Source of the DNA: an uncultured Planctomycetaceae bacterium
GTDB taxonomy: Bacteria > Planctomycetota > Planctomycetia > Planctomycetales > Planctomycetaceae
Direction: 5' to 3'
Assembly: GCA_963813715.1 (NCBI GenBank)
Contig: CAWFAK010000007.1
Span: 512,001-576,000, forward strand
Length of the DNA stretch: 64,000 nucleotides
Program-made: the position numbers and the translations under genes
Notes under the pieces: model-generated
Databases searched by the model: none
What the model was told of the DNA's origin: nothing
Seen by the model: the letters and a program-made list of their open reading frames with translations, nothing else
Part shown: piece by piece, positions 15,032 to 36,143 of the stretch
Numbering within the stretch: position 1 is the first letter of the stretch
Layout: each line of letters opens with the position of its first letter

Positions 15032-15085
15032 TTGGTCGGAGGTGTCACGGGCCCTGGGCGGCGATCGGCAGCTTGACGCCCCCCG

Positions 15086-15128
15086 GTCGATTTCCAAAGA
15101 TTGACGCTGTCGATTCGCAAAGATTGAC
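15086..15128 (+). promoter_or_regulatory. 20-nt direct repeat upstream of the RiPP precursor
   Basis: GTCGATTTCCAAAGATTGAC (15086-15105) and GTCGATTCGCAAAGATTGAC (15109-15128), 18/20 identical, period 23. Confidence 0.55.
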
Positions 15129-15165
15129 CGAGTCGGCTTCGACCAAAGGTCCCGAGGGTGTGGGC

Positions 15166-15672
15166 ATGCGTCTGAACGAACGGCGGGAAAGCGCGCTCAG
15201 TCGGCGCGACTTTCACCGGCTTGCGACCGCGGCCTTCGGCGGCCTGCTGGCCGGTTCGCTCGCCGGGTGTGGTGATGGCGATCGGGCGGCGGCCCCCGTT
15301 TCAGGCTCGCCCGCTGCTCCGAAAACCGGGCCGGCACCGACCACGACCGCCCCGGTGGTCAGCGCCACGACGGTGGCGCTCCACGCCTGCCGCGGCCTGA
15401 ACGAGTGCAAAGGACTGGGCAAAGACCACAAAAATGCCTGTGCCGGCCAGGGAAACTGCTTCACCGTCACCCATGACTGCGCCGAGAAGAACGATTGCAA
15501 ATCCCAAGGCGGCTGCGGCGGGACGAATGGGTTCAATGACTGCAAAGGCAAAGGCGGTTGCGGACACTTCCCGATCGAGGACGGAGTCTGGAAGAAAGCC
15601 CGCGCCCAGTTCGAGTCCCGCATGAAGGTGGCAGGCAAGAAAGTCGGTCCGGCCCCGGCGGCCGCCGGCTAA
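15166..15672 (+). CDS. Cys-rich MNIO RiPP precursor (bufferin-like) with Tat-lipoprotein signal
   Basis: SRRDFH twin-arginine motif, LAGC lipobox, Pro/Thr/Ala linker, 9 core Cys in repeats CRGLNECKG, CAGQGNC, CAEKNDCKSQGGC, NDCKGKGGC; immediately upstream of DUF692. Confidence 0.8.
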   Translation: MRLNERRESALSRRDFHRLATAAFGGLLAGSLAGCGDGDRAAAPVSGSPAAPKTGPAPTTTAPVVSATTVALHACRGLNECKGLGKDHKNACAGQGNCFTVTHDCAEKNDCKSQGGCGGTNGFNDCKGKGGCGHFPIEDGVWKKARAQFESRMKVAGKKVGPAPAAAG

Positions 15673-15696
15673 CGTTGGCGTCAGAGAGCAGGCGAA

Positions 15697-16663
15697 ATGA
15701 TCCCGTCACGACTTGGTCATCCCAATCTCGGACTCGGGCTGGGCCTGCGAACCGTCCACTATCAACACATCCTCGACCACAATCCGAGCGTGGACTGGTT
15801 CGAGGTCATCTCCGAAAACTACATGGATTCGGGCGGGCGGCCCCGCTACGTGCTCGAGCAGGTCGCCGAACGCTATCCGATCGTGATGCACGGGGTCTCG
15901 CTGTCGATCGGCAGCACCGATCCGGTCAATTTCGAGTATCTCAACAAGCTTCGCGATCTGGCCCGGGTGACCAAGGCCCTCTGGGTCTCGGATCATGTCT
16001 GCTGGACGGGAGTCGCCGGTCGCAACACGCACGACCTTTTGCCGATTCCCTACACCGAGCAGGCGCTGGCGCACGTGATCGACCGAATCCGCGTCGTGCA
16101 GGACGTGCTGGAGCGGCCGCTGGTGCTGGAGAACCCCAGCACGTACGTGACCTTCGCCGACTCGACAATGCCCGAGGCCGAATTTCTGACGCGCATGACC
16201 GAGGCGACCGGCTGCGGCCTCTTGCTCGACGTCAATAACGTTTACGTCTCCTGCTTCAACCACGACCAGGATCCCTTCGAGTTCCTCCGCTCGATCCCGC
16301 ACGAACGGGTCGTGCAATTTCATCTGGCCGGCCATACCAACTGCGTAACGCACTTGATCGACACGCATGACGGCCGGGTCATCAATCCGGTCTGGGACTT
16401 GTATCGGCTCGCTCACCAGCTGACGGGCGGCGTCTCCACCCTGCTCGAATGGGACGCGCGGATTCCCGCCGTTCCCCGTCGTGCACGCGGAAGTACTCAA
16501 AGCCCGCAACTATATGGTGTCGGAGCTCACGGGGTTCGCGGCCGACGCTGCGAGCACAGCGAGCGATGCTCAAAGCGCCGCTGAGTCGGAAGTGTTCGAG
16601 GAACTCGCTGAAGAGCCCGGCATTCCGCAGCCGGCAACCTACGCGACGGCGGAGTTCGAGTGA
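15697..16663 (+). CDS. DUF692 multinuclear non-heme iron oxidative enzyme (MNIO); frameshift near 16468
   Basis: [69 protein letters not shown]. The C-terminus continues in ORF 16481-16663. Confidence 0.93.
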
Positions 16664-16714
16664 CCCTTTGACCGCGGACGTTGAGGTCGCGATTTGATTG
16701 GCGGGCGAGTTGGA

Positions 16715-17650
16715 ATGACGGGCAACCGGCAAGAGCTGCGGCAACTCGCCCAGATTCAGCGTTGGCTGCAAGCCGTCATTACGCATCCCGACGGCGTCGA
16801 AGCGGGAATGGCATCGGACGCGGCGCAGTCCGAGATCGATATCTCGGCCGATCGCGTCGAAGAAGTCATCGATCGTTCGAAACGGCGGACCAGCGTCGAG
16901 CGGCTGGAAATCTACGCGAACGCCTACTACGCGCGGCTGCTGGAATGCTTGCGCGATGAATATCCCGCCCTGCTGCATGCGGCGGGCGAGGAAGTCTTTG
17001 ACGGGCTGGCCTTTGGCTATCTGCAGGCGTATCCGTCGCAGAGCTACACGCTGGGCGAATTGAGCCGGCGATTCGCCCAATACTTAGAGGAGACGCGGCC
17101 GACCGACGAAGACGAGGCGGGCGCGGGCCCGTCGTGGCCCGAGTTTCTGATCGACCTGGTCCGTCTCGAACGCTGCTATAGCGACGTCTTTGACGGACCG
17201 GGCGCCGAACGCATGTCGCTGCTCGACGCGGCCGCACTCAAGGACCTTTCACCCGAAGCCTGGATGCAGGCGCGCCTCGTCACCGTCCCCTGCCTGCGGC
17301 TGTTGTCGTTGCGATTCCCGGTCCACGAGTACGCGACGGCCGTCCGCGAGAAAACAGATCCCGATCTGCCGGAACCGACGCCGACCTGGCTGGCGGTGAG
17401 CCGGATCAATTACGTGGTCCGCCGCTGGACGCTCAGCCCGGTGCAGTTCGAATTGCTGGCGGCACTGATCGAAGGACAAAGCGTCGGCGCGGCCATCGAG
17501 CGAGCCGCCATACTCGCGGTCGAATCGGGCGAAAGCGTCGAAGGACTCGCTGCCAGTCTGCGCGACTGGTTCGCCGAGTGGTCGTCGGCCGGATTCTTTC
17601 AGGCGGTCGAGCTGCCCGGCTCACGCGAAGGTGAATCCTCGATTAAGTAG
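16715..17650 (+). CDS. DUF2063-type MNIO partner protein (HvfC/BufC-like)
   Basis: QRWLQAVITHP, ERLEIYANAYYARLLECLRDEYPAL, YLQAYPSQSYTLGEL, DLVRLE; directly follows DUF692. Confidence 0.88.
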   Translation: MTGNRQELRQLAQIQRWLQAVITHPDGVEAGMASDAAQSEIDISADRVEEVIDRSKRRTSVERLEIYANAYYARLLECLRDEYPALLHAAGEEVFDGLAFGYLQAYPSQSYTLGELSRRFAQYLEETRPTDEDEAGAGPSWPEFLIDLVRLERCYSDVFDGPGAERMSLLDAAALKDLSPEAWMQARLVTVPCLRLLSLRFPVHEYATAVREKTDPDLPEPTPTWLAVSRINYVVRRWTLSPVQFELLAALIEGQSVGAAIERAAILAVESGESVEGLAASLRDWFAEWSSAGFFQAVELPGSREGESSIK

Positions 17651-17741
17651 CGTCTCCGCTCGTTGCTCGCCCGACCTCCGGCCGACATACTGCGACGAGC
17701 CCATCTCTTCGCACAACAATTCGCCCGCTGGAGTGCCGCCA

Positions 17742-18795
17742 ATGTCCAACAAATTGTCGCTGTTCAACAAGTCGTTGTCTCTCACGTGTCTGGGGATTTG
17801 TCTCCTCGTTGCCCTGCCGGCCCGCTCGGCCGACGGTCCGGGGCCGTTCGAGGTCGCGGAGACGATCCACATCGGCGGCAAAGGCGGGTTCGACTATGTG
17901 ACGGTCGATTCGCAGGGCAAGCGGCTCTACATCCCGCGGGGCACGCACACCCAGATCCTTGACCTGACCACTGGCAAACTCGTCGGCGACATTCCTGGGC
18001 AGCAGGCCAATCACGGCGTCGCGCTGAACAGGCAGGTCGGTCGCGGCTTCATCTCCGATGGGCCGGGCTATGTCGTGATCTTCGATTTGAAGACAAACGC
18101 TGTGCTGGGCAAGGTGCAGGTCGCTCGCGGAGCCGACGGGATTATCAACGATCGGGGCAGCAAGACGCATCTTCGTCGCGTGCGGGTCGTCGGGCAGCCT
18201 GACGCCGATTCCCATCGATGTCGATCCGACCAACGGCAAAGCCGATCCGGCGATCGAGCTGGGCGGTAAACCCGAATATCTGGCGTGCGACGGCCAGGGA
18301 CGAGTCTTCGTGAACCTCGAGGACAAGGACCAAGTGGCCGTCGTTGACTCGAAGGCCCTCAAAGTCCTCGACAAGTGGTCGATCGCTCCGGGTGGAACGC
18401 CGGTGGGGATGCAGATCGATCCGGAACATCACCGCTTGTTCGTCGGTTGTCGAGAACCGCAAAAGCTGATCATTCTCAACACCGAAGACGGTCACGTGCT
18501 CGGCGATTTGCCGATCGGCGTCGGCTGTGATGCCGTGAAGGCCGATCAGGGCGACATCTTCGCCAGTTGCCGCGATGGCAGCTTGACCGTGGGGCGCGAG
18601 ACTTCGCCCGGCAAGTTCGAGGTTTTGCAGACCGTGAAAACACGACCGGGCGCCAAAACCATGGCCCTCGACCACGCCACCCACAGCATTTACCTGCCGA
18701 CTGCCGAGTTCGGGGAAGAAACCGACCGCCGCGGCCGACGGAAAGCCAAGCCCGACAGCTTTATGATCGTGGTCGTCCGCCCCGTGCAAAAATAG
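17742..18795 (+). CDS. Exported YncE/YVTN-like beta-propeller protein (frameshift near 18165)
   Basis: Signal peptide; GGKGGFDYVTVD..RLYIPRG, HGVAL, GFISDG, LGGKPE, VFVNLED, RLFVGCR, GAKTMALD. Confidence 0.85.
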
Positions 18796-18813
18796 AGGCT
18801 GGGGGAATTGGAA

Positions 18814-19884
18814 CTAGTTCGCAGCCGGCACTTGCTGCGTCAGGCAGTGGAACGCCCCCAGGCCCCAGATTACATCCAGGCAGTCCAGGCCGATGACCTC
18901 GCGATCGGGAAAGAACCGGGCCAGCGTCGATCGCGCAATCTCGTCGTTCGGGTGATTGTAGGTCGGCAGCAGGACGACGGTGTTGGCAATGTAGAAGTTG
19001 GCGTAACTCGCCGGCAGGCGCTGCCCTTCGTAAACGACTGGGGGCGGCATCGGAATCGGGACGATCTCCAGCGACCGCCCGTTCAGGTCGGTCATCGCTT
19101 CGAGGCGTCGCAAGTTTTCCCGGAGGGGAGCAAAGTTGGCGTCCGATGGGTCGTCCTCGATGGCCGTCACGACCGTGCGTGGTCCGACGAAGCGGGTCAG
19201 ATCGTCGACATGCCCGTCAGTGTCGTCCCCCACGATGCCGTCACCCAGCCACAGCACCTTTTCGACGCCCAGCATTTCCAGCAGGCGGATCTCGATGTGA
19301 TCCCGAGAAAGGTCGGGGTTGCGGTTCGGATTGAGCAGGCAGCCTTCGGTCGTGAGCAGCACGCCGCCACCGTTGCTGTCGATCGAGCCCCCCTCGAGGA
19401 TCATCCCCCCCTTGCGGCAGGGAATTCCCAGAGTGTCAGCCATGCGGGACGGAATCAGGTTGTCGAGATCGTGCGGCGGGTACTTGTTGCCCCAGGCGTT
19501 GTAGTCCCAGTCGATCGCCAGTCGCGGAGCTTTGGCCCCGCGACCGTCGCGATGGGTGAGAATGATTGCTCCGTGATCGCGGCACCAGGCGTCGTTGGTC
19601 GGGAAGCGATGAAAGCGAATGTCGCCCGTCGCACGTGCCCCGTCGAGAAACCGCCGAGCCTTCCCCTCCATCGCCTCGTCGTTGACGTTGATGTGAACCG
19701 TTTCCGAGCGGGCGAGCGCCGCCGCCATTTGCGCATAAACCGGGAAGATCGTCTCGATCTTGCCGGGCCACGACGCCTCTTTGTGCGGCCACGACAGCCA
19801 CGTGGCTTCGTGCGGCTCCCACTCGGCTGGCAGGCGGTAGCCGAGCTGTTTGGGCGTCGCGTCGGCAGTCACGGAAGTGCTCAC
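18814..19884 (-). CDS. aguA: Agmatine deiminase
   Basis: PAEWEPHEATWLSWP, NDAWCRDHG, LEGGSI, DDTDGHVD, ASYANFY, GAFHCLTQQVP. Confidence 0.93.
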   Translation of the reverse strand: MSTSVTADATPKQLGYRLPAEWEPHEATWLSWPHKEASWPGKIETIFPVYAQMAAALARSETVHINVNDEAMEGKARRFLDGARATGDIRFHRFPTNDAWCRDHGAIILTHRDGRGAKAPRLAIDWDYNAWGNKYPPHDLDNLIPSRMADTLGIPCRKGGMILEGGSIDSNGGGVLLTTEGCLLNPNRNPDLSRDHIEIRLLEMLGVEKVLWLGDGIVGDDTDGHVDDLTRFVGPRTVVTAIEDDPSDANFAPLRENLRRLEAMTDLNGRSLEIVPIPMPPPVVYEGQRLPASYANFYIANTVVLLPTYNHPNDEIARSTLARFFPDREVIGLDCLDVIWGLGAFHCLTQQVPAAN

Positions 19885-19890
19885 GGCAGG

Positions 19891-20782
19891 TCAATCGATA
19901 TAGCGTCGCGTAATCTCGCCGTAGGCGTCGACACGGCGGTCCCGGAGGAAGGGCCAGTGCGTCCGCGCGAAGTCGAGCTGGCCCAGGTCGACGGGCACGA
20001 CGTGCGTCGCCGTCTGATCGACGGGCCCGCGCCACAGCACTTCGCCGCTCGGATCGGCGACAAAGCTCTGTCCCCAGAATTCGATGCCGTCGCCGGCAGC
20101 TCGCCGGATCCTTCTCCAAACCGGTGCGGTTGACGCTGACAACGAAGCAGCCGTTGGCGACCGCGTGCGAGCGCTGGATCAGCTCCCAGCTCTGGTGCTG
20201 ACGCCGGCCGTACTGGGCCTTCTCGGACGGGTGCCAGCCAATGGCGGTCGGATAGAAGAGGATGTCCGCCCCGCGGAGGGCCGTCAGCCGTGCCGCTTCC
20301 GGATACCACTGGTCCCAGCAGATCAACACGCCGAGCTTGGCGAACCGCGTCGGAAAGACCTGGAACCCGAGATCGCCCGGCGTGAAATAGAACTTCTCGT
20401 AGAAGAGCGGATCGTCGGGAATGTGCATCTTGCGATACTTGCCGACGAACGAGCCGTCGGCGTCGATTACGGCGGCCGTGTTGTGATAGAGCCCTTCGGC
20501 CCGCTTCTCGAACAGCCCGGCGACGATCGCCACGCCCAGTTCCCGGGCCACCCGGCCGAGCTGCTCGGTCGTCGGACCGGGGATCGGCTCGGCCAGGGCG
20601 AAAAACGCGTGGTCTTCCCGCTGGCAGAAATAAGTCGACGTGAAGAGCTCGGGGAGGCAGACGACCTGCGCCCCAGCCGCAGCGGCCACCCGAATCTGGG
20701 CGACGGCATGCGCCAGGTTCGCGGCCGGATCGGTCCCGCAGCGAAGTTGAACCAGGCCGATCGAGACGGTTTTGGCGGACAT
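19891..20782 (-). CDS. aguB: N-carbamoylputrescine amidohydrolase (nitrilase family; frameshift near 20100)
   Basis: CLPELF, YRKMHIPDDPLFYEKFYFTPGD, LICWDQWYPE, YPTAIGW, FWGQSF, WPFLRDRR. Confidence 0.9.
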
Positions 20783-20833
20783 TGTTGCGGGACCGGTTGT
20801 CTTTGGAACCGTCGTGGTCCCTTGCACGAGCGC

Positions 20834-21922
20834 CTAGCGGGCGCCGGCGTCCAGCTCCTCGAAGACGGCTTTCATCAACAGGGGCAACGCCACCGTCGCG
20901 TCGGCATAGACCTCGGCGAAGCGGCCGCCTTCCTGCGGCGGCATGAACTTGCCCCAGCTGACGCCTTCCGAGTAGGTGCAGCCGGAGAGCCCGCCCCAAT
21001 GGACAGGCTCCGGGCAGATTCGCACTCCGTATTTGAACCGCGGCGTCGGCAAGTTCGCGCCGAGCCGGGCGTTGGTGATGTCGTAGTAGGGAGCGACCTG
21101 CTGGGCCCAGTTGCGGGGCACGCCGCCGCCGATCGTGAAGATGCCCAGCGTCGAGCAGTCGCCGATCAGGCGGGCGTATTCCTGCAAGTCGAGAAACGGA
21201 TTGAACGGCGGGATGGCCTGCAGCACGGTGTGATGGTCGGCCTTGGCCGGATCGATGCCCTTCTTCGCCAGCGCCCGGTGCATGGCCCACGTCGAAACGT
21301 CGAGCCCCATTTCGCTGTCAGTGAACGCCGGAATGAAGACGGGGACGTTTTTCTCGTAGGCGCTCCGCAGCACGCCCGGGCCCCTCGGCCAGCGCGCTCA
21401 GCCGTTTGCCGAGCGCCCGGCAGATGCGGGCCGACGACCAGACGCCCCCTTCGGGCTCGGTCTGGTCCATCACCGACGCCACGAGCTGGGCCACTTCGTT
21501 GAGGTTGGCCTCCATCTCGAGCGTGTCGTAGATGCGGTTGTAGCCCTGGTCGAAGAGCTCGGTGTCGCTCTGCGTCGGGTCACACCGATAGTGCGTCAGG
21601 CCGATCGATTCGGTGAGGCCGTGGGCCATGAGGGCCCCGGTGGCGATCACCGCGTGGACGAGGCCGCGCTCGATCAGGTCGCAGAAGATGCGGCCCTGCT
21701 TGGCGACCGTCATCGCGCCGGAGATGGTGACGACCACGCGACACGACGGATCGCGGGCCATCTCCATAAAAATGTCAAAAGCTTCACCGAGTTGGCGGCC
21801 GGAGAATGCCGTTTTGGACATCGGCGCAGGAGATCGCGGAAGGAGGCGATTCCGTCGAGAGAAAGACTCTCCAACGGTTCAAGACCGTCCTCACGCCCGT
21901 CGTGGAGCGAACGATTATCCAT
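20834..21922 (-). CDS. Deoxyhypusine synthase-like protein, probable homospermidine synthase (frameshifts near 21375 and 21825)
   Basis: TAFSGRQLGEA, TISGAMT, ATGALMAH, GYNRIYD, PAFTDSE, IGGGVPRNWAQQ, GGLSGCTYSEGVSWGK, DATVALP. Confidence 0.88.
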
Positions 21923-21951
21923 GGCAGCCGCCAACCCGAGAGCAGTCTGGG

Positions 21952-22351
21952 TTATGTCGAAGTAGCCACTGGTTCTTCTTCCAGTGCGCTCTCCGTTTGC
22001 GGTTCCAGGATAAAACGAGGCATCTGGCGGATGGAAACGTCACCCAGCCCGATTTCCTCGCGGATGTAGGCCAGGACATCTCGCGGATTGGTTCTTCCGC
22101 ACGTAAAGACGTCCAGTGCGACCAGCCCCAGATCGGCATAGGTGTGGCAGGAACAGTGGCTCTCGTCGAGAACCACGACTGCCGTAAAGCCGGGGGGAGA
22201 ATTGTGCCCGAATTGATACCGAACCTGAGAGATCACGTTGGCGCCGGCGCGCAGCGCCTCGGGCCATGGCGGCCAACATTGCTCCGTCATCTAGACAAAC
22301 GTCACGAGAGACGTTACGGCAGTCCACCAGAAGATGTTTGCCCTTTTCCAA
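21952..22351 (-). CDS. speD: Pyruvoyl-dependent decarboxylase of the SpeD (AdoMetDC) family (frameshift near 22265)
   Basis: GKHLLVDC, GFTAVVVLDESHCSCHTY (ESH self-cleavage motif), DVFTCG; TTG start after GGAGG. Substrate uncertain. Confidence 0.85.
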
Positions 22352-22676
22352 TTCATAAACCCTCCCAAGACGCGTAGGCGACTTCACGCACCTCCCCACC
22401 CAACGCCATTTGGTCAAGACGACGCAGAGCAAAGAGGCCGCAGATCGGCACAGCGCCGATCCTGCCGATGGATAAAGATCGAATAATTTATGACGCAATC
22501 TCCAGATGAATCAAGACATATTTATCGTGTGGGCAAAAAAAAATTGGAGAACGGGAAACTTCGCGGCCTCGAAGATGCTCCGCAAGGCTCTGAGCGGCGC
22601 CGCGGCGCGCGGAAGAAGAGGCTCGTTCGAGGCGCCTCGCAGCGACGCAGAGCACCGGCGCAGCATCCGGGAACGG

Positions 22677-23708
22677 TCACACGCTGAAGCGCACGACGAT
22701 CTCGTCGCCGTCGCGCATCACGTACTCTTTCCCTTCGACGTGCTGCAGCCCCGCCGCCTTCACTTCGCGCTCCGAGCCGAGTCGCAGCAGATCGTCAACT
22801 GCCATGATTTCGGCCCGAATAAAGCCTCTGGCGAGATCCGTGTGAATTGTTCCGGCTGCGTCGAGAGCCGATCCGCCGCGGTGCAGGAGCCAGGCGTGGA
22901 CCTCTTTTTCATCACTCGTATAGAAGGTGATTTGGTCGGTCACTTGGAAGAGTGCCTGCAAAACTTTCGTCGCGCAGGGCTCGCCGAGCCCCATCTCGCG
23001 GGCGAACGTCTCGCGGTCCTCCGGCGGAAGCTGCTGAACTTCCAGCTCCAGACCGACCGGAGCCGACACGCAGCGCTGTCCACCGGCCTCGATCTGCTTC
23101 ACCAGTGCCTCGTCGACCGCTCCGTCGGCCGTGTTGAGCAGCACGAGCCGCCCTTTGCGGGTCAAAAGCGAGAACGATTTGGTGGCTTTGTCCTGCAACT
23201 CGCTGAATTCGAGGCCCGCGACTGACTCGCCCGCCTCCAGTTTGGCCGCGATTGGCTCCAGAGCGGCAATTTCTGCCTGTAATTGTTCCCGATCGGGCCG
23301 CGGCTTGGTCAAATCCTTGCGCAACCGCCCCAACCGGTTCGAGACGACCTGCAAATCGGCCAAAACCAAATCGTCATGAAAGGCCTGGACGTCGGCGAGC
23401 GGGTCGGCGCCGCTAAAGGAGCCGACAATCTGCACGAGGGCGGCCGATTCGCGAATCACTCCGAGGCGAGCCCCGTTCGAATCGTGGTCCTTGCGATCGA
23501 GGCCCGGCGTGTCGAAGAGCTCGATCCGCGCGGGCGACACCTTTTTCGGCTTGTAGAGACCGACCAGCCCGTCGAACCGCGCGTCGTGAACCACGGCGGT
23601 CCCCAGCTGGCCCAGGTGAGCCTTGGCCGGGTCCGGTTTCACCCCCGTCAACAACTCGAAGAGGGCACTTTTCCCAGATCCCTGGTAACCGACCAATCCC
23701 AGTTTCAT
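22677..23708 (-). CDS. YchF-related Obg-family NTPase (DUF933/TGS C-terminus), divergent
   Basis: GYQGSGKS P-loop, DTPG, C-terminal AAGTIHTDLARGFIRAE..EGKEYVMRDGD; lacks the canonical ANYPF motif. Confidence 0.85.
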   Translation of the reverse strand: MKLGLVGYQGSGKSALFELLTGVKPDPAKAHLGQLGTAVVHDARFDGLVGLYKPKKVSPARIELFDTPGLDRKDHDSNGARLGVIRESAALVQIVGSFSGADPLADVQAFHDDLVLADLQVVSNRLGRLRKDLTKPRPDREQLQAEIAALEPIAAKLEAGESVAGLEFSELQDKATKSFSLLTRKGRLVLLNTADGAVDEALVKQIEAGGQRCVSAPVGLELEVQQLPPEDRETFAREMGLGEPCATKVLQALFQVTDQITFYTSDEKEVHAWLLHRGGSALDAAGTIHTDLARGFIRAEIMAVDDLLRLGSEREVKAAGLQHVEGKEYVMRDGDEIVVRFSV

Positions 23709-33987: not shown

Positions 33988-34030
33988 AGTTCCTCCGCCC
34001 GATTGCCCGCCCTCCGTGGGGACCCGCCGC

Positions 34031-36143
34031 ATGCAGCCGACCCGCCGCGCTTGCGTGGTCATTTTGGCCGTGGTCATTTGGGAATTGCCCGCTGGTGCAT
34101 TCGGCACCGGTGCCACGGCATGGGCGCAGACCATCTCCTCCGTCACGCCACTGGCGTTGCGGCCGGGGCAGACGCAGGACGTCGTGCTGGCCGGAAACGG
34201 TCTCGGCGACGCCCGCCAGTTCTGGTCCAGCTTCCCGCAAAAGTCGGCCCTTGCCACGGAACCGGCTAATGCCAAAAAGAACCCCGCGTTGGCCACCTTC
34301 CGCATCACCGTTCCGCCGCAGACGCCACTGGGGATTTACGGAATTCGGGTGGCAACGAATAGCGGCGTTTCGCCCCTGAAGCTGGTGCTGCTCGACGATC
34401 TGCCGACCGTGCGGGCCACCGGCGCGAATCTCTCGCGACGCATCGCCCAGGCGTTGAGCCTGCCGACGGCCGTCGAAGGCACGCTCGGTCCGCAGCAACT
34501 GCACTACTTCAAGTTTCACATCGAAGCGGGGCAGGGCGTTTCGTTCGAGGTCTACGCTCGTCGGATCGGATCGCTGCTGGACCCCACGCTCCGGCTCTTC
34601 GACGCGAGGGGCCGCGAAGTCACCTATAGCGACGACGTCCCCGGGCTGAGCGAAGACGCGGCGATCCACCGGACGTTTCGCAAGGCCGGCGACTATGTCC
34701 TGGAGCTGGGCGACAACCTGTACCAGGGAGGTAGCGACTACTTCTACCGCATTCGCATCGGCGACTTTGCCGCGGCCCCCCTCCCCTACCCGCTGGCAGC
34801 CACGCGGGGCAGCGAATTCACCTGCCGCTTCGCCGACAGCGCGGCAAGCCCGATCGAACCTGTCCGCGGCAAGGCTCCCACGAACCCGATGCAAACCGCA
34901 CTCTTCCTTCCCGTTCGACAAAACGGCGGCGACGCGCAGAGCTTCGCGCCAATCCTCCTCTCCGACCACCGACAAGCCAGCGAAGCGGAACCCAACAACA
35001 GCGCGAAGACGGCTACCCGCGTGAATCTGGGCGACGATTTGAACGGCCGGCTCGAAACGTCGGACGATGTCGACAACTTTGTCTTTCATGCCTCCGCCGG
35101 CGAGTTGGTGCGATTCAAGTCGATTTCGCGCCGACTGGGCTCCCCGGCCGATGTGGTCCTCCGCGTGCTCGATGCGCAGGGCAACCCGCTGGCCGCCGCC
35201 GAGAGCCAGGGGTCCGAGGAAGCCACGCTCTGGGTGACTTTTCCCGCGGCGGCCGATTACACGCTCGAAGTTCGCGACCTCAATCACCGCGGCAATCCGC
35301 GGTTCGTCTACCACATCGACGTCGTCGCCGAGCCGTCCCAGCCTCCCAAAGAGCAGTCTCCCAAAAGCGGATCGGCCAAAGAGCCAAAACACGTCGCGCG
35401 ACATGTGCACACCTTTACGCTGAATGCTGCCGCCGACTCGGTGGTGATTCCCGGCGGGCGGAACGGCGGCGATCCCCGTCTCGTCGGTGCGTTCCCATTA
35501 CAACGGCTCGATCTTCGTGCAGGCGGTCGACCTGCCGCCGGGAGTGAAGAGCCGACCGACGTGGATCGGCGGCGGTGAAGATCTCGCCGAGTTGACGCTG
35601 CAGTCGACAGGCGAGCTTCCGGCAGGCGTCATCCATTCCATTCGCATCGTGGGCTCCCCCGAACATTCTGACGCGACGGTCATGGCACAAGCGACCGAAG
35701 CTGTCCGCACGCAGCTCGGCAACATGCCGTACCCACCGCTGGGACTGTGCGGCAATCTGGCGCTCGTCGCCGGACCGCGGCCCAACTTCACGCTCCACAC
35801 CGAGCCCGGCGAAATCGTCCTCAGCCCCGACCACTCGACGAAGTGCAAACTGATCGCCGAACGACAAAAGGGGTTCGACGACGAGATTGCCCTGGCGGTG
35901 AGCCCCGTCAAGAAGGGTCTGCCGCCGGGAGTCAGCGTCAGCGTCAAGCCGATCGCCAAGGGCGCGGCCTCCGCCGAAATCACATTCTCGGCCAACGGAA
36001 AGGCCGACCCAACCGTGGCGACCGTGGTCTTGGTCGGGACGATCAAACGGGGCAACCAGGCGTTCAGCGAGCCGGCTCCAGGCATCGAGCTGACCGTCAA
36101 ACGGGCGAGTGCCAAGCGAAAACCTGAAGGGAAAAAGTCATGA
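34031..36143 (+). CDS. Exported PPC-domain protein of the type that accompanies DUF1549/1553 genes (frameshift near 35460)
   Basis: Signal peptide; GIYGIRVAT..GVS, ARRIGSLLDPTLRLFD, AGDYVLEL, EAEPNN repeats. Confidence 0.8.

Follow-up and report, generated by a model that had tools for sequence, protein, structure and literature searches.

A four-gene planctomycete operon that probably encodes an agmatine-dependent route to sym-homospermidine

A stretch of 64,000 nucleotides from an uncultured Planctomycetaceae bacterium (contig CAWFAK010000007.1; this whole stretch is called the window below) carries a speD-like gene followed by homologs of deoxyhypusine synthase (DHS), aguB and aguA. Which polyamine could such an operon produce, from which precursor, and are its genes intact in the organism? 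We read it as an agmatine-dependent ('diagmatine') route to sym-homospermidine, and we read the frame breaks that interrupt it in this assembly as sequencing or assembly indels rather than decay. We give this reading a probability of about 0.62.

Layout of the operon and its frame breaks

The first-pass annotation described the speD-like, DHS-like, aguB and aguA genes as co-oriented with gaps of 6 to 51 nt, and this is correct. All four lie on the minus strand, and the gaps read from the sequence are 29 nt (speDA-speY), 51 nt (speY-aguB) and 6 nt (aguB-aguA). The coordinates are collected in Table 1. The operon had also been called self-contained, and this is supported. Its four genes are collinear in all 11 genus-mates, a conserved arrangement rather than a chance one. 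The start codon of speDA is preceded by a Shine-Dalgarno-like run, GGGAGGG. On the far side of the upstream spacer is a ychF-like gene, with YchF domains on 22677-23708. The promoter is presumed to lie in the spacer, which contains an A+T-rich stretch. A scan of positions 18500-22800 for sigma-70 promoters gave no promoter-like sites, and a terminator scan of the same interval gave four terminator-like sites against 3.0 expected.

Table 1. Features of the operon, with start and stop positions and Pfam matches.
Feature	Position	Strand	Start	Stop	Pfam match and remarks
speDA (SpeD-family pyruvoyl proenzyme, predicted L-arginine decarboxylase)	21952..22351	-	TTG 22351	21952	PF02675; 133 aa when in frame; 21952-22290 matches AdoMet_dc positions 30-106 (68.7 bits)
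speY (deoxyhypusine-synthase homolog, predicted agmatine-coupling G44G 'diagmatine' synthase)	20834..21922	-	ATG 21922	20834	PF01916, both pieces; 21318-21821 and 20834-21373 match DS positions 6-147 and 153-287
aguB-like carbon-nitrogen hydrolase, predicted N1,N9-bis(carbamoyl)homospermidine amidohydrolase	19891..20782	-	ATG 20782	19891	PF00795, both pieces; 20050-20827 and 19891-20142 match CN_hydrolase positions 2-211 and 213-254
aguA-like guanidino-group deiminase, predicted G44G iminohydrolase	18814..19884	-	GTG 19884	18814	PF04371; intact, 356 aa; matches PAD_porph over the full profile 1-321 (408 bits)
325-nt spacer between the ychF-like gene and speDA, with an A+T-rich stretch	22352..22676	-			presumed promoter region

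Three of the four operon genes are out of frame in this assembly, through four indels. In speD 2 nt are missing near 22246-22253. The N-terminus of speY is broken by the loss of 1 nt at 21823, and a second break in the same gene is an extra nucleotide at about 21378-21380. One nucleotide too many is also found in aguB, at about 20099-20100. The two-nucleotide loss in speD and the two insertions (at ~21380 and ~20100) are seen in the window only and are absent from all five genus-mates that were aligned. At each of the four sites a frame-restoring difference is present in Logan contigs from all four independent soil metagenome runs.

Frame breaks are also found outside the operon. A tblastn census against a 98%-complete genus-mate found about 10 frameshifts over 45 kb of the window, with psd, DUF1501 and further window genes affected, and the density in the assembly is about one per 4-7 kb. 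The census was used in place of a screen for overlapping ORF pairs, where most of the 22 pairs proved to be separate neighbouring genes. A reverse control, with the window ORFs compared to genome G009, produced three apparent shifts; two fall on antisense shadow ORFs and one on an out-of-frame ORF tail, and they therefore say nothing against G009.

Because other window genes are split too, the four indels in the operon are most likely assembly errors. They could instead be real mutations in an operon that is decaying in this strain. Their density would suit decay, with four in the 3.5 kb of the operon against about 6 in the other ~41 kb compared, as would the best-matching read set, which shares only 0.51 of sampled words with the window. 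However, the damage extends to psd, DUF1501 and other window genes, the frames are intact in the contigs of all four soil runs, and the coding sequence of the operon is otherwise kept, at 94% identity to genome G002. The genus-mates also argue against decay: aguA, speY or lysA is split at other sites in genomes assembled into few contigs (aguA and lysA only in those that are 67-87% complete), and the many-contig genomes are intact. We consider decay improbable, and split genes in this assembly should not be taken for pseudogenes.

The SpeD homolog and the probable origin of agmatine

The SpeD homolog of the window is very probably an arginine decarboxylase, judging by its residues and its relatives. 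Intact forms found elsewhere are 133, 152 or 166 aa long and 93-99% identical to it. Its Ser, His and Cys align with S63, H68 and C83 of the T. maritima AdoMetDC (1TLU, 1VR7), and in the alignment the processing Ser is marked by the S63A mutant structure 1TMI. The core motif is HTYAD, compared with HTWPE in T. maritima, so that Ala replaces Pro71; all 13 clade members carry the Ala-Asp pair. SpeDA is described as marked by the loss of a Pro that bona fide AdoMetDC enzymes always keep (PMC10407285), and the diagnostic position was deduced here from the text of that paper. Over 94 aa the homolog shares 71% identity with P0121, which represents a 90% cluster containing a Gimesia maris DSM 8797 fragment (EDL58976.1), and it is by this 81-aa fragment, in the same 90% cluster, that the comparison is tied to the assayed G. 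maris SpeDA (WP_081459519). The latter is reported to be active with arginine and inactive with ornithine and lysine (PMC10407285). The first-pass annotation had proposed an arginine decarboxylase here, and the lost Pro, the retained Ser, His and Cys and the identity to a near-copy of the G. maris gene all speak for it; according to the text of PMC10407285 the idea is already published.

The same gene might be an ordinary S-adenosylmethionine decarboxylase working for a distant speE. It matches TIGR03330 as well as PF02675, and 'S-adenosylmethionine decarboxylase' is the public name of its relatives. This is very hard to reconcile with the replaced Pro and the near-copy of an assayed arginine decarboxylase. 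It is also at odds with the fixed place of the gene upstream of speY, which directly follows it in 65 of 80 related loci, and with a separate, Pro-bearing speD that adjoins speE. The public name is probably wrong for the relatives of this gene.

The Pro-bearing speD is found on contig C17 of the same genome, in a cluster of speD, DUF4178 and a membrane-fused aminopropyltransferase (NF002956, 652 bits, cut-off 472) that is unlinked to the operon. Its product keeps HTFPE and is 32% identical to the SpeD homolog of the window. Two SpeD copies are present in 10 of the 12 genomes of the genus. A 360-aa PF03435 match on C17, the sole one above the cut-off, was considered as an HSS or carboxyspermidine dehydrogenase and was rejected; it covers the N-terminal NAD domain only and comes with epimerase-like matches.

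Other routes into polyamines were searched for in the genus set of 12 genomes, of which four are at least 90% complete. None of the 12 has a detectable AAT-fold decarboxylase (PF01276), PvlArgDC (PF01862) or arginase-fold agmatinase. An AR-fold decarboxylase is present as one gene in 11 of the 12, and the gene of this genome is LysA by TIGR01048 (481 bits, cut-off 298) and adjoins asd. An arginine or ornithine decarboxylase other than the SpeD homolog was found in none of the 12. The published genomic signature of SpeDA is seen here: SpeE accompanies a second SpeD, and canonical decarboxylases for arginine or ornithine are lacking.

The case for an arginine decarboxylase had been built on two statements, that decarboxylated S-adenosylmethionine (dcSAM) has no consumer here and that agmatine has no other local source. 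The latter is upheld by the genome search for speA-type genes. The former is true of the locus but not of the genome, since the suggested search for speE finds it on C17, next to a canonical speD of its own. As a speE elsewhere is part of the published two-SpeD signature, its presence leaves the arginine decarboxylase reading standing. With speD and speE present and an ornithine decarboxylase lacking from the searched genomes, agmatine has to be the source of some amine acceptor, and agmatine itself or N1-aminopropylagmatine may be further substrates of AguA and AguB.

SpeY, AguA and AguB in the proposed route

Every substrate and product in the following scheme is taken from the published enzymology of relatives, and the gene identities, gene order, conservation and active-site residues are observations made here. 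SpeDA would cleave itself between LDE and SH, at the Ser, to form its pyruvoyl group, and would decarboxylate L-arginine to agmatine. SpeY would then join two agmatines into N1,N9-bis(guanidino)homospermidine (G44G) in an NAD-dependent reaction at its conserved lysine. Deimination of both guanidino groups by the AguA homolog would give the bis-carbamoyl compound (C44C), and hydrolysis of both carbamoyl groups by the AguB homolog would give homospermidine. That homospermidine is the end product, as the first-pass annotation proposed, is very probable; sym-homospermidine is the only major polyamine of Gimesia (PMC4334474).

The intact ortholog of SpeY is a protein of 363 aa that begins MDTRSLHDG. 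SpeY keeps the catalytic Lys (K329 in human DHS, K299 in Thermus CdmS) and a Glu at -6. Profile alignment to human DHS placed the SWGK motif and this Glu, and both are inside the window ORF 20834-21373. Asp243 and Asp316 of human DHS are both Leu here (SEMG-L-D and GG-L-SGC). In CdmS the same sites are reported as F204 and L286 (PMC10981699), a contrast that rests on a model of CdmS. The intact ortholog (L010) reaches no NCBIfam equivalog cut-off, scoring 179.7 bits against 500 for the G44G-synthase model NF002699, 155 against 450 for NF001980 and 232 against 434 for NF002006. Planctomycete SpeY belongs to a DHS-like subfamily outside those assayed so far. Among 120 good genomes sampled across the class, 111 carry the DS family, so co-occurrence of AguA and SpeY could not discriminate.

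All six bacterial SpeY proteins assayed in PMC13625781 are reported to make G44G from two agmatines. When expressed in E. coli lacking speB they are described as giving approximately background homospermidine, and G44G accumulates. Thermus CdmS is also reported to make G44G (Sci Rep 2024, PMC10981699). Neither planctomycetes nor Gimesia are mentioned in the main text of the J Biol Chem 2026 paper (PMC13625781). The route preferred in the first-pass annotation, by N-carbamoylputrescine and putrescine, is probably wrong, as all seven SpeY proteins assayed in the two papers are reported to couple two agmatines (PMC13625781, PMC10981699). Its alternative was that the DHS-like enzyme aminobutylates agmatine and that AguA and AguB process the product. 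This is much closer to the published G44G route.

The aguA-like gene is the sole PAD_porph gene of the genome, and it is single copy in all 12 genomes of the genus. Among NCBIfam models the AguA homolog comes closest to agmatine deiminase and the AguB homolog to N-carbamoylputrescine amidase, in both cases below the equivalog cut-offs. The AguA homolog scores 291.6 against 381.8 for TIGR03380 and 311.8 against 483 for NF010070, and the intact AguB ortholog scores 297.4 against 410.25 for TIGR03381 (aguB). The closest solved chain to the AguA homolog is 1XKN (463.7 bits). One AguA homolog linked to SpeY has been described as G44G-specific with undetectable agmatine activity, and diverse AguA homologs are said to accept G44G in vivo (PMC13625781). 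On the basis of their linkage to speY, we predict that the AguA homolog is a G44G iminohydrolase and the AguB homolog a C44C amidohydrolase. The AguB-like protein may also act on N-carbamoylputrescine.

The pathway might nevertheless run through putrescine, with AguA and AguB converting the agmatine made by SpeDA and the DHS-like enzyme joining two putrescines into homospermidine. The best model matches of the AguA and AguB homologs would agree with this, as would the score of the planctomycete SpeY subfamily below the G44G-synthase cut-off and the need of the C17 speE for an amine acceptor where an ornithine decarboxylase was not found. We think it unlikely. The six SpeY proteins gave G44G in place of homospermidine, Leu occupies both of the human Asp sites, and AguA and AguB are both under the canonical cut-offs; in addition, the authors of PMC13625781 reason that SpeY would run short of substrate if a canonical enzyme consumed the agmatine. 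Another arrangement is that AguA and AguB accept G44G or C44C, agmatine and N1-aminopropylagmatine alike, so that one arginine decarboxylase and one hydrolytic pair supply two branches, to homospermidine and to the product of the C17 speD and speE. The single AguA of the genome and genus, the lack of a detected agmatinase or ornithine decarboxylase, the canonical speD with its membrane-fused aminopropyltransferase and the acceptance of G44G by diverse AguA homologs are consistent with such dual use. The undetectable agmatine activity of the assayed SpeY-linked AguA homolog argues against it, and we doubt that it applies.

A further reading concerns this soil genus as a whole. Arginine would enter polyamines only through a single pyruvoyl arginine decarboxylase and a single AguA/AguB pair, and AguB would be a dedicated bis(carbamoyl)homospermidine amidohydrolase, the first of its kind. 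The C17 cluster would draw on the pair as well, by N1-aminopropylagmatine or aminopropyl-homospermidine, and the chemistry of planctomycete SpeY may differ in detail. This reading is speculative, and we hold it as a tentative possibility. If it were true, two polyamine branches would hang on agmatine without free putrescine.

Relation to known systems

The nearest known system is that of Gimesia maris, from the same bacterial family, in which a speD-like gene is reported directly upstream of speY (Li et al., J Biol Chem 2023, PMC10407285). Its SpeDA (WP_081459519) shares the HCYAD/HTYAD-type core without Pro, at an identity of about 71-75%. However, the G. maris aguA and aguB are described as lying elsewhere in the genome (PMC10407285), and the Gimesia sp. 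loci examined contain speDA-speY only, whereas all four genes form one operon in the present genus (12 of 80 loci). The same four activities are clustered in a Ca. Diapherotrites archaeon, whose SpeDA has been assayed as an arginine decarboxylase; that cluster differs in being archaeal, in having aguA and aguB fused and in a SpeDA from another clade of the published tree (PMC10407285).

The SpeY/DIH pathway reported from Rhizorhabdus wittichii and Ca. Fonsibacter ubiquis also combines SpeY with AguA and AguB homologs and is described as leading from agmatine by G44G and C44C to homospermidine, with the AguB step a predicted one there as here (Li et al., J Biol Chem 2026, PMC13625781). Its agmatine is made by a re-purposed PLP ornithine decarboxylase, here by a predicted pyruvoyl SpeDA, and its AguA and AguB homologs are described as unlinked in R. 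wittichii whereas they are linked here (PMC13625781). The speDA-speY-speB clusters of Capsulimonas corticalis and others are built on the same principle, except that a single ureohydrolase does the work of AguA and AguB, as in Thermus, where CdmS is paired with a ureohydrolase (PMC10981699). Arginase-family genes make up 12 of the 27 downstream ORFs scanned in the same SpeDA clade. The ureohydrolase systems release urea in one step, whereas AguA and AguB would release ammonia and CO2 in two.

The operon is a real finding and a largely ordinary one, as the arginine-to-homospermidine route that it most likely encodes is already in print. Its linked gene set is suited to testing whether an AguB homolog hydrolyses bis(carbamoyl)homospermidine, a step that is still a prediction for every organism in the published accounts cited here. 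The agmatine-dependent homospermidine pathway, itself defined only recently, gains a compact bacterial example in which speDA, speY, aguB and aguA are unfused and which comes from a soil planctomycete genus that is widespread.

Operon layout and reading frames

The speDA (speD-like), speY (DHS-like), aguB and aguA genes lie in one orientation on the minus strand, spanning 22351 to 18814 of the window (C7:512001-576000). The intergenic gaps are 29 nt (speDA/speY), 51 nt (speY/aguB) and 6 nt (aguB/aguA), as the first-pass annotation had placed them (6-51 nt), and its coordinates were also correct. A ychF-like gene lies upstream of speDA in the same direction across a 325-nt spacer, the gene downstream of aguA is convergent, and all 11 genus-mates compared have the collinear order speDA-speY-aguB-aguA. 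A RiPP-like cluster is also present in the window, which we take to resemble copper-binding 'bufferin' clusters.

Features of the window and of contig C17
Feature	Position	Strand	Remarks
speDA	TTG 22351 to 21952	-	start/stop from sequence and intact orthologs; GGGAGGG 8 nt upstream of TTG; Pfam AdoMet_dc at 21952-22290, 68.7 bits
speY	ATG 21922 to 20834	-	start/stop as for speDA; Pfam DS in two pieces, profile positions 6-147 and 153-287
aguB	ATG 20782 to 19891	-	start/stop as for speDA; Pfam CN_hydrolase in two pieces, profile positions 2-211 and 213-254
aguA	GTG 19884 to 18814	-	start/stop as for speDA; Pfam PAD_porph at 18814-19884, 408 bits
RiPP-like cluster	15073-17650	+	
199-aa Cys-rich protein	within 15073-17650	+	no Pfam match
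MbnB/TglH/ChrH (DUF692) enzyme	within 15073-17650	+	350.9 bits; frameshifted near 16470
DUF2063 protein	within 15073-17650	+	
Frame change, DUF1501 gene	about 9690		tblastn census vs G009
Frame change, psd	about 12480		tblastn census vs G009
Frame change, DUF692-type gene	about 16470		tblastn census vs G009
Frame change, gene at 17643-18792	about 18150		tblastn census vs G009
Frame change, aguB (once)			tblastn census vs G009
Frame changes, speY (twice)			tblastn census vs G009
Frame change, gene at 34013-36140			tblastn census vs G009
Frame change, PSCyt2/PSD1 gene	about 45377		tblastn census vs G009
Frame change, speD indel			not sampled by census; added to it
canonical-looking speD (HTFPE), 581-aa DUF4178 zinc-ribbon protein, 538-aa membrane-fused aminopropyltransferase	C17:703574-707745		loci L001, L003

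Three of the four genes are out of frame in this assembly. Aligned with five genus-mates (L009-L013), the window alone lacks 2 nt at about 22253 (speD), has one extra nt at about 21380 (speY; CCC, compared with CC in all five relatives) and has one additional base at about 20100 (aguB). Logan contigs from four soil metagenome runs of four different studies were compared over 18700-22500; no run resembles the source of the window, the best sharing 0.51 of sampled words. All four omit the base at 20099 or 20100 (aguB) and one at 21378 (speY; run X2 has contigs at both 21375 and 21378), and all insert GC behind 22246 (speD). A fourth indel, a C inserted behind 21823 in all four runs, rejoins the N-terminus of SpeY (MDNRSLHDG...) to the remaining gene and matches the relatives.

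The breaks extend beyond the operon. A tblastn census, in which ORFs of G009:C107 (G009 is a collinear genus-mate, 98% complete, in about 210 contigs) were compared with window 700-46100, gave 10 frame changes. One of these falls on an antisense shadow ORF, so that with the speD indel about 10 are real. Among the genus-mates, G003, G004 and G011 have a split aguA, and G003 and G011 also a split lysA-like gene; these three assemblies comprise 1-9 contigs at 67-87% completeness. Both genes are unbroken in many-contig genus-mate assemblies of 91-98% completeness. Genes are also split, at other positions, in four of the 12 four-gene loci from public species genomes. The frame breaks very probably reflect indel errors that such assemblies carry in general. 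We retain a reservation that the four operon frameshifts may be real decay, as indels are denser in the operon (4 per 3.5 kb) than elsewhere in the window (about 6 per 41 kb). Window 700-46100 differs from the 98% complete G009 by about 10 frameshifts, and a split gene of this genome is not to be taken for a pseudogene.

The SpeD homolog as a predicted arginine decarboxylase

Intact relatives of the SpeD homolog, of 133, 152 or 166 aa and 93-99% identity, are common (932 matches). In alignment with T. maritima AdoMetDC, the Ser of LDESH corresponds to S63, a position marked by the S63A mutant 1TMI, the following His to H68 and the Cys of FTCG to C83; the text of Li et al. 2023 (PMC10407285) describes these three residues as kept in all homologs. 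The window protein has HTYAD vs HTWPE in T. maritima, and all 13 clade members compared carry this Ala-Asp. According to the same text, the SpeD-derived pyruvoyl arginine decarboxylases (SpeDA) do not conserve a Pro that is invariant among bona fide AdoMetDCs; from its wording we infer that this is the Pro of the HTWPE-type motif. It also reports a Gimesia maris protein assayed as active on arginine and inactive on ornithine and lysine. The window homolog shares 71% identity over 94 aa with P0121, representative of a 90% cluster that includes an 81-aa fragment of G. maris DSM 8797, and its matches at Gimesia sp. loci are about 75% identical.

A second SpeD homolog (C17:707167-707745) retains HTFPE and shares 32% identity with the window type. 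It is followed by the DUF4178 protein and the 538-aa aminopropyltransferase, which scores 652 bits on NF002956 (cut-off 472). The sole AR-fold decarboxylase of the genome is LysA, adjoining asd, and no AAT-fold decarboxylase, PvlArgDC or arginase-fold enzyme was found in this 82.6% complete genome. Given that completeness, the searches were repeated on 12 genus genomes including this one, four of them at least 90% complete. PF01276, PF01862 and PF00491 were found in none of the 12; one lysA-like gene is present in 11, two SpeD homologs in 10 and a single aguA in 12. This gene content is precisely the signature used in PMC10407285 ('two SpeD, one SpeE, no SpeA or SpeC'). The first-pass annotation proposed an arginine decarboxylase in an operon devoid of speA and spermidine synthase; outside the operon, the genome does have a speD/speE pair, on C17. 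This pair needs an amine acceptor, which, in a genome where neither ornithine decarboxylase nor agmatinase was found, can only derive from agmatine.

Spread of the gene arrangement

In 80 public loci encoding a SpeDA relative, speY directly follows the SpeDA gene in 65 and is missing from 13 with downstream DNA present; two have no downstream DNA. All four genes occur in 12 of the 80, under record titles of Planctomycetaceae or, in one case, Planctomycetota. From 39 candidates in the remaining loci, 27 downstream ORFs were scanned and 12 were arginase-family, the published speDA-speY-speB form. Gimesia loci carry speDA-speY only, in contrast to the four genes together here. Of 120 good genomes sampled from the class, 111 carry the DS family.

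Close SpeDA homologs (74-78% identity) at L029, L030, L032, L033 and nine other loci have no speY within about 6 kb downstream, and their substrate may differ; at L032 the DNA immediately upstream encodes a homolog of the C17-type aminopropyltransferase. Near relatives (61-78% identity; L034, L051-L097) occur in Hydrogenedentota, Nitrospirales, Desulfobacterales, Sumerlaeia and Latescibacterota records, many with speY and then an arginase-family gene downstream. This range fits the published wide horizontal spread.

The text of PMC10407285 already contains the arginine decarboxylase idea, SpeDA/speY clustering and an archaeal speDA, speY and aguA-aguB cluster. An unfused four-gene bacterial operon was not found described in the article texts covered, and 'Planctomyc' and 'Gimesia' have no occurrence in the main text of PMC13625781.

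Probable route to homospermidine

The chemistry of the route is already in print in two papers. In the text of Kobayashi et al. 2024 (PMC10981699), a Thermus DHS homolog couples two agmatines. In that of Li et al. 2026 (PMC13625781), N1,N9-bis(guanidino)homospermidine (G44G) builds up in E. coli lacking speB with each of six further SpeY from diverse phyla, while homospermidine stays near background; human DHS, plant DHS and HSS make no G44G. AguA homologs convert G44G to its bis-carbamoyl counterpart (C44C), and no activity on agmatine was detected for the AguA homolog associated with SpeY in R. wittichii.

Aligned to a profile of 11 SpeY orthologs, K329 and E323 of human DHS are kept, D316 is replaced by Leu (GGLSGC) and D243 by Leu (SEMGLD), and both motifs are present in the window's own speY ORF. 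According to the text of PMC10981699, it is at just these two positions that Thermus CdmS, a SpeY-type enzyme, departs from human DHS (L286 and F204). AguA and AguB score below the NCBI equivalog cut-offs for the canonical enzymes, and the SpeY ortholog is under that of every NCBIfam equivalog, the G44G-synthase model included.

The published SpeY and AguA chemistry, the SpeY residues and the AguA and AguB scores make Arg -> agmatine -> G44G -> C44C -> homospermidine the most likely route. The SpeD homolog would form agmatine from arginine, SpeY would couple it to G44G, AguA would yield C44C and AguB is predicted to release homospermidine. As the tested SpeY couple agmatine to G44G, the path through putrescine first favoured for this operon is not close to the likely route; the second option, in which the DHS-like enzyme acts on agmatine before AguAB, comes close to it. 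According to the text of PMC4334474, Gimesia has a single major polyamine, sym-homospermidine.

The closest solved chain to the AguA homolog is 1XKN (463.7 bits, against 188-233 for the other chains matched), a structural-genomics entry named 'putative peptidyl-arginine deiminase'; chains named agmatine deiminase are among those far below it. 1XKN could be a template for the speY-linked AguA subfamily.
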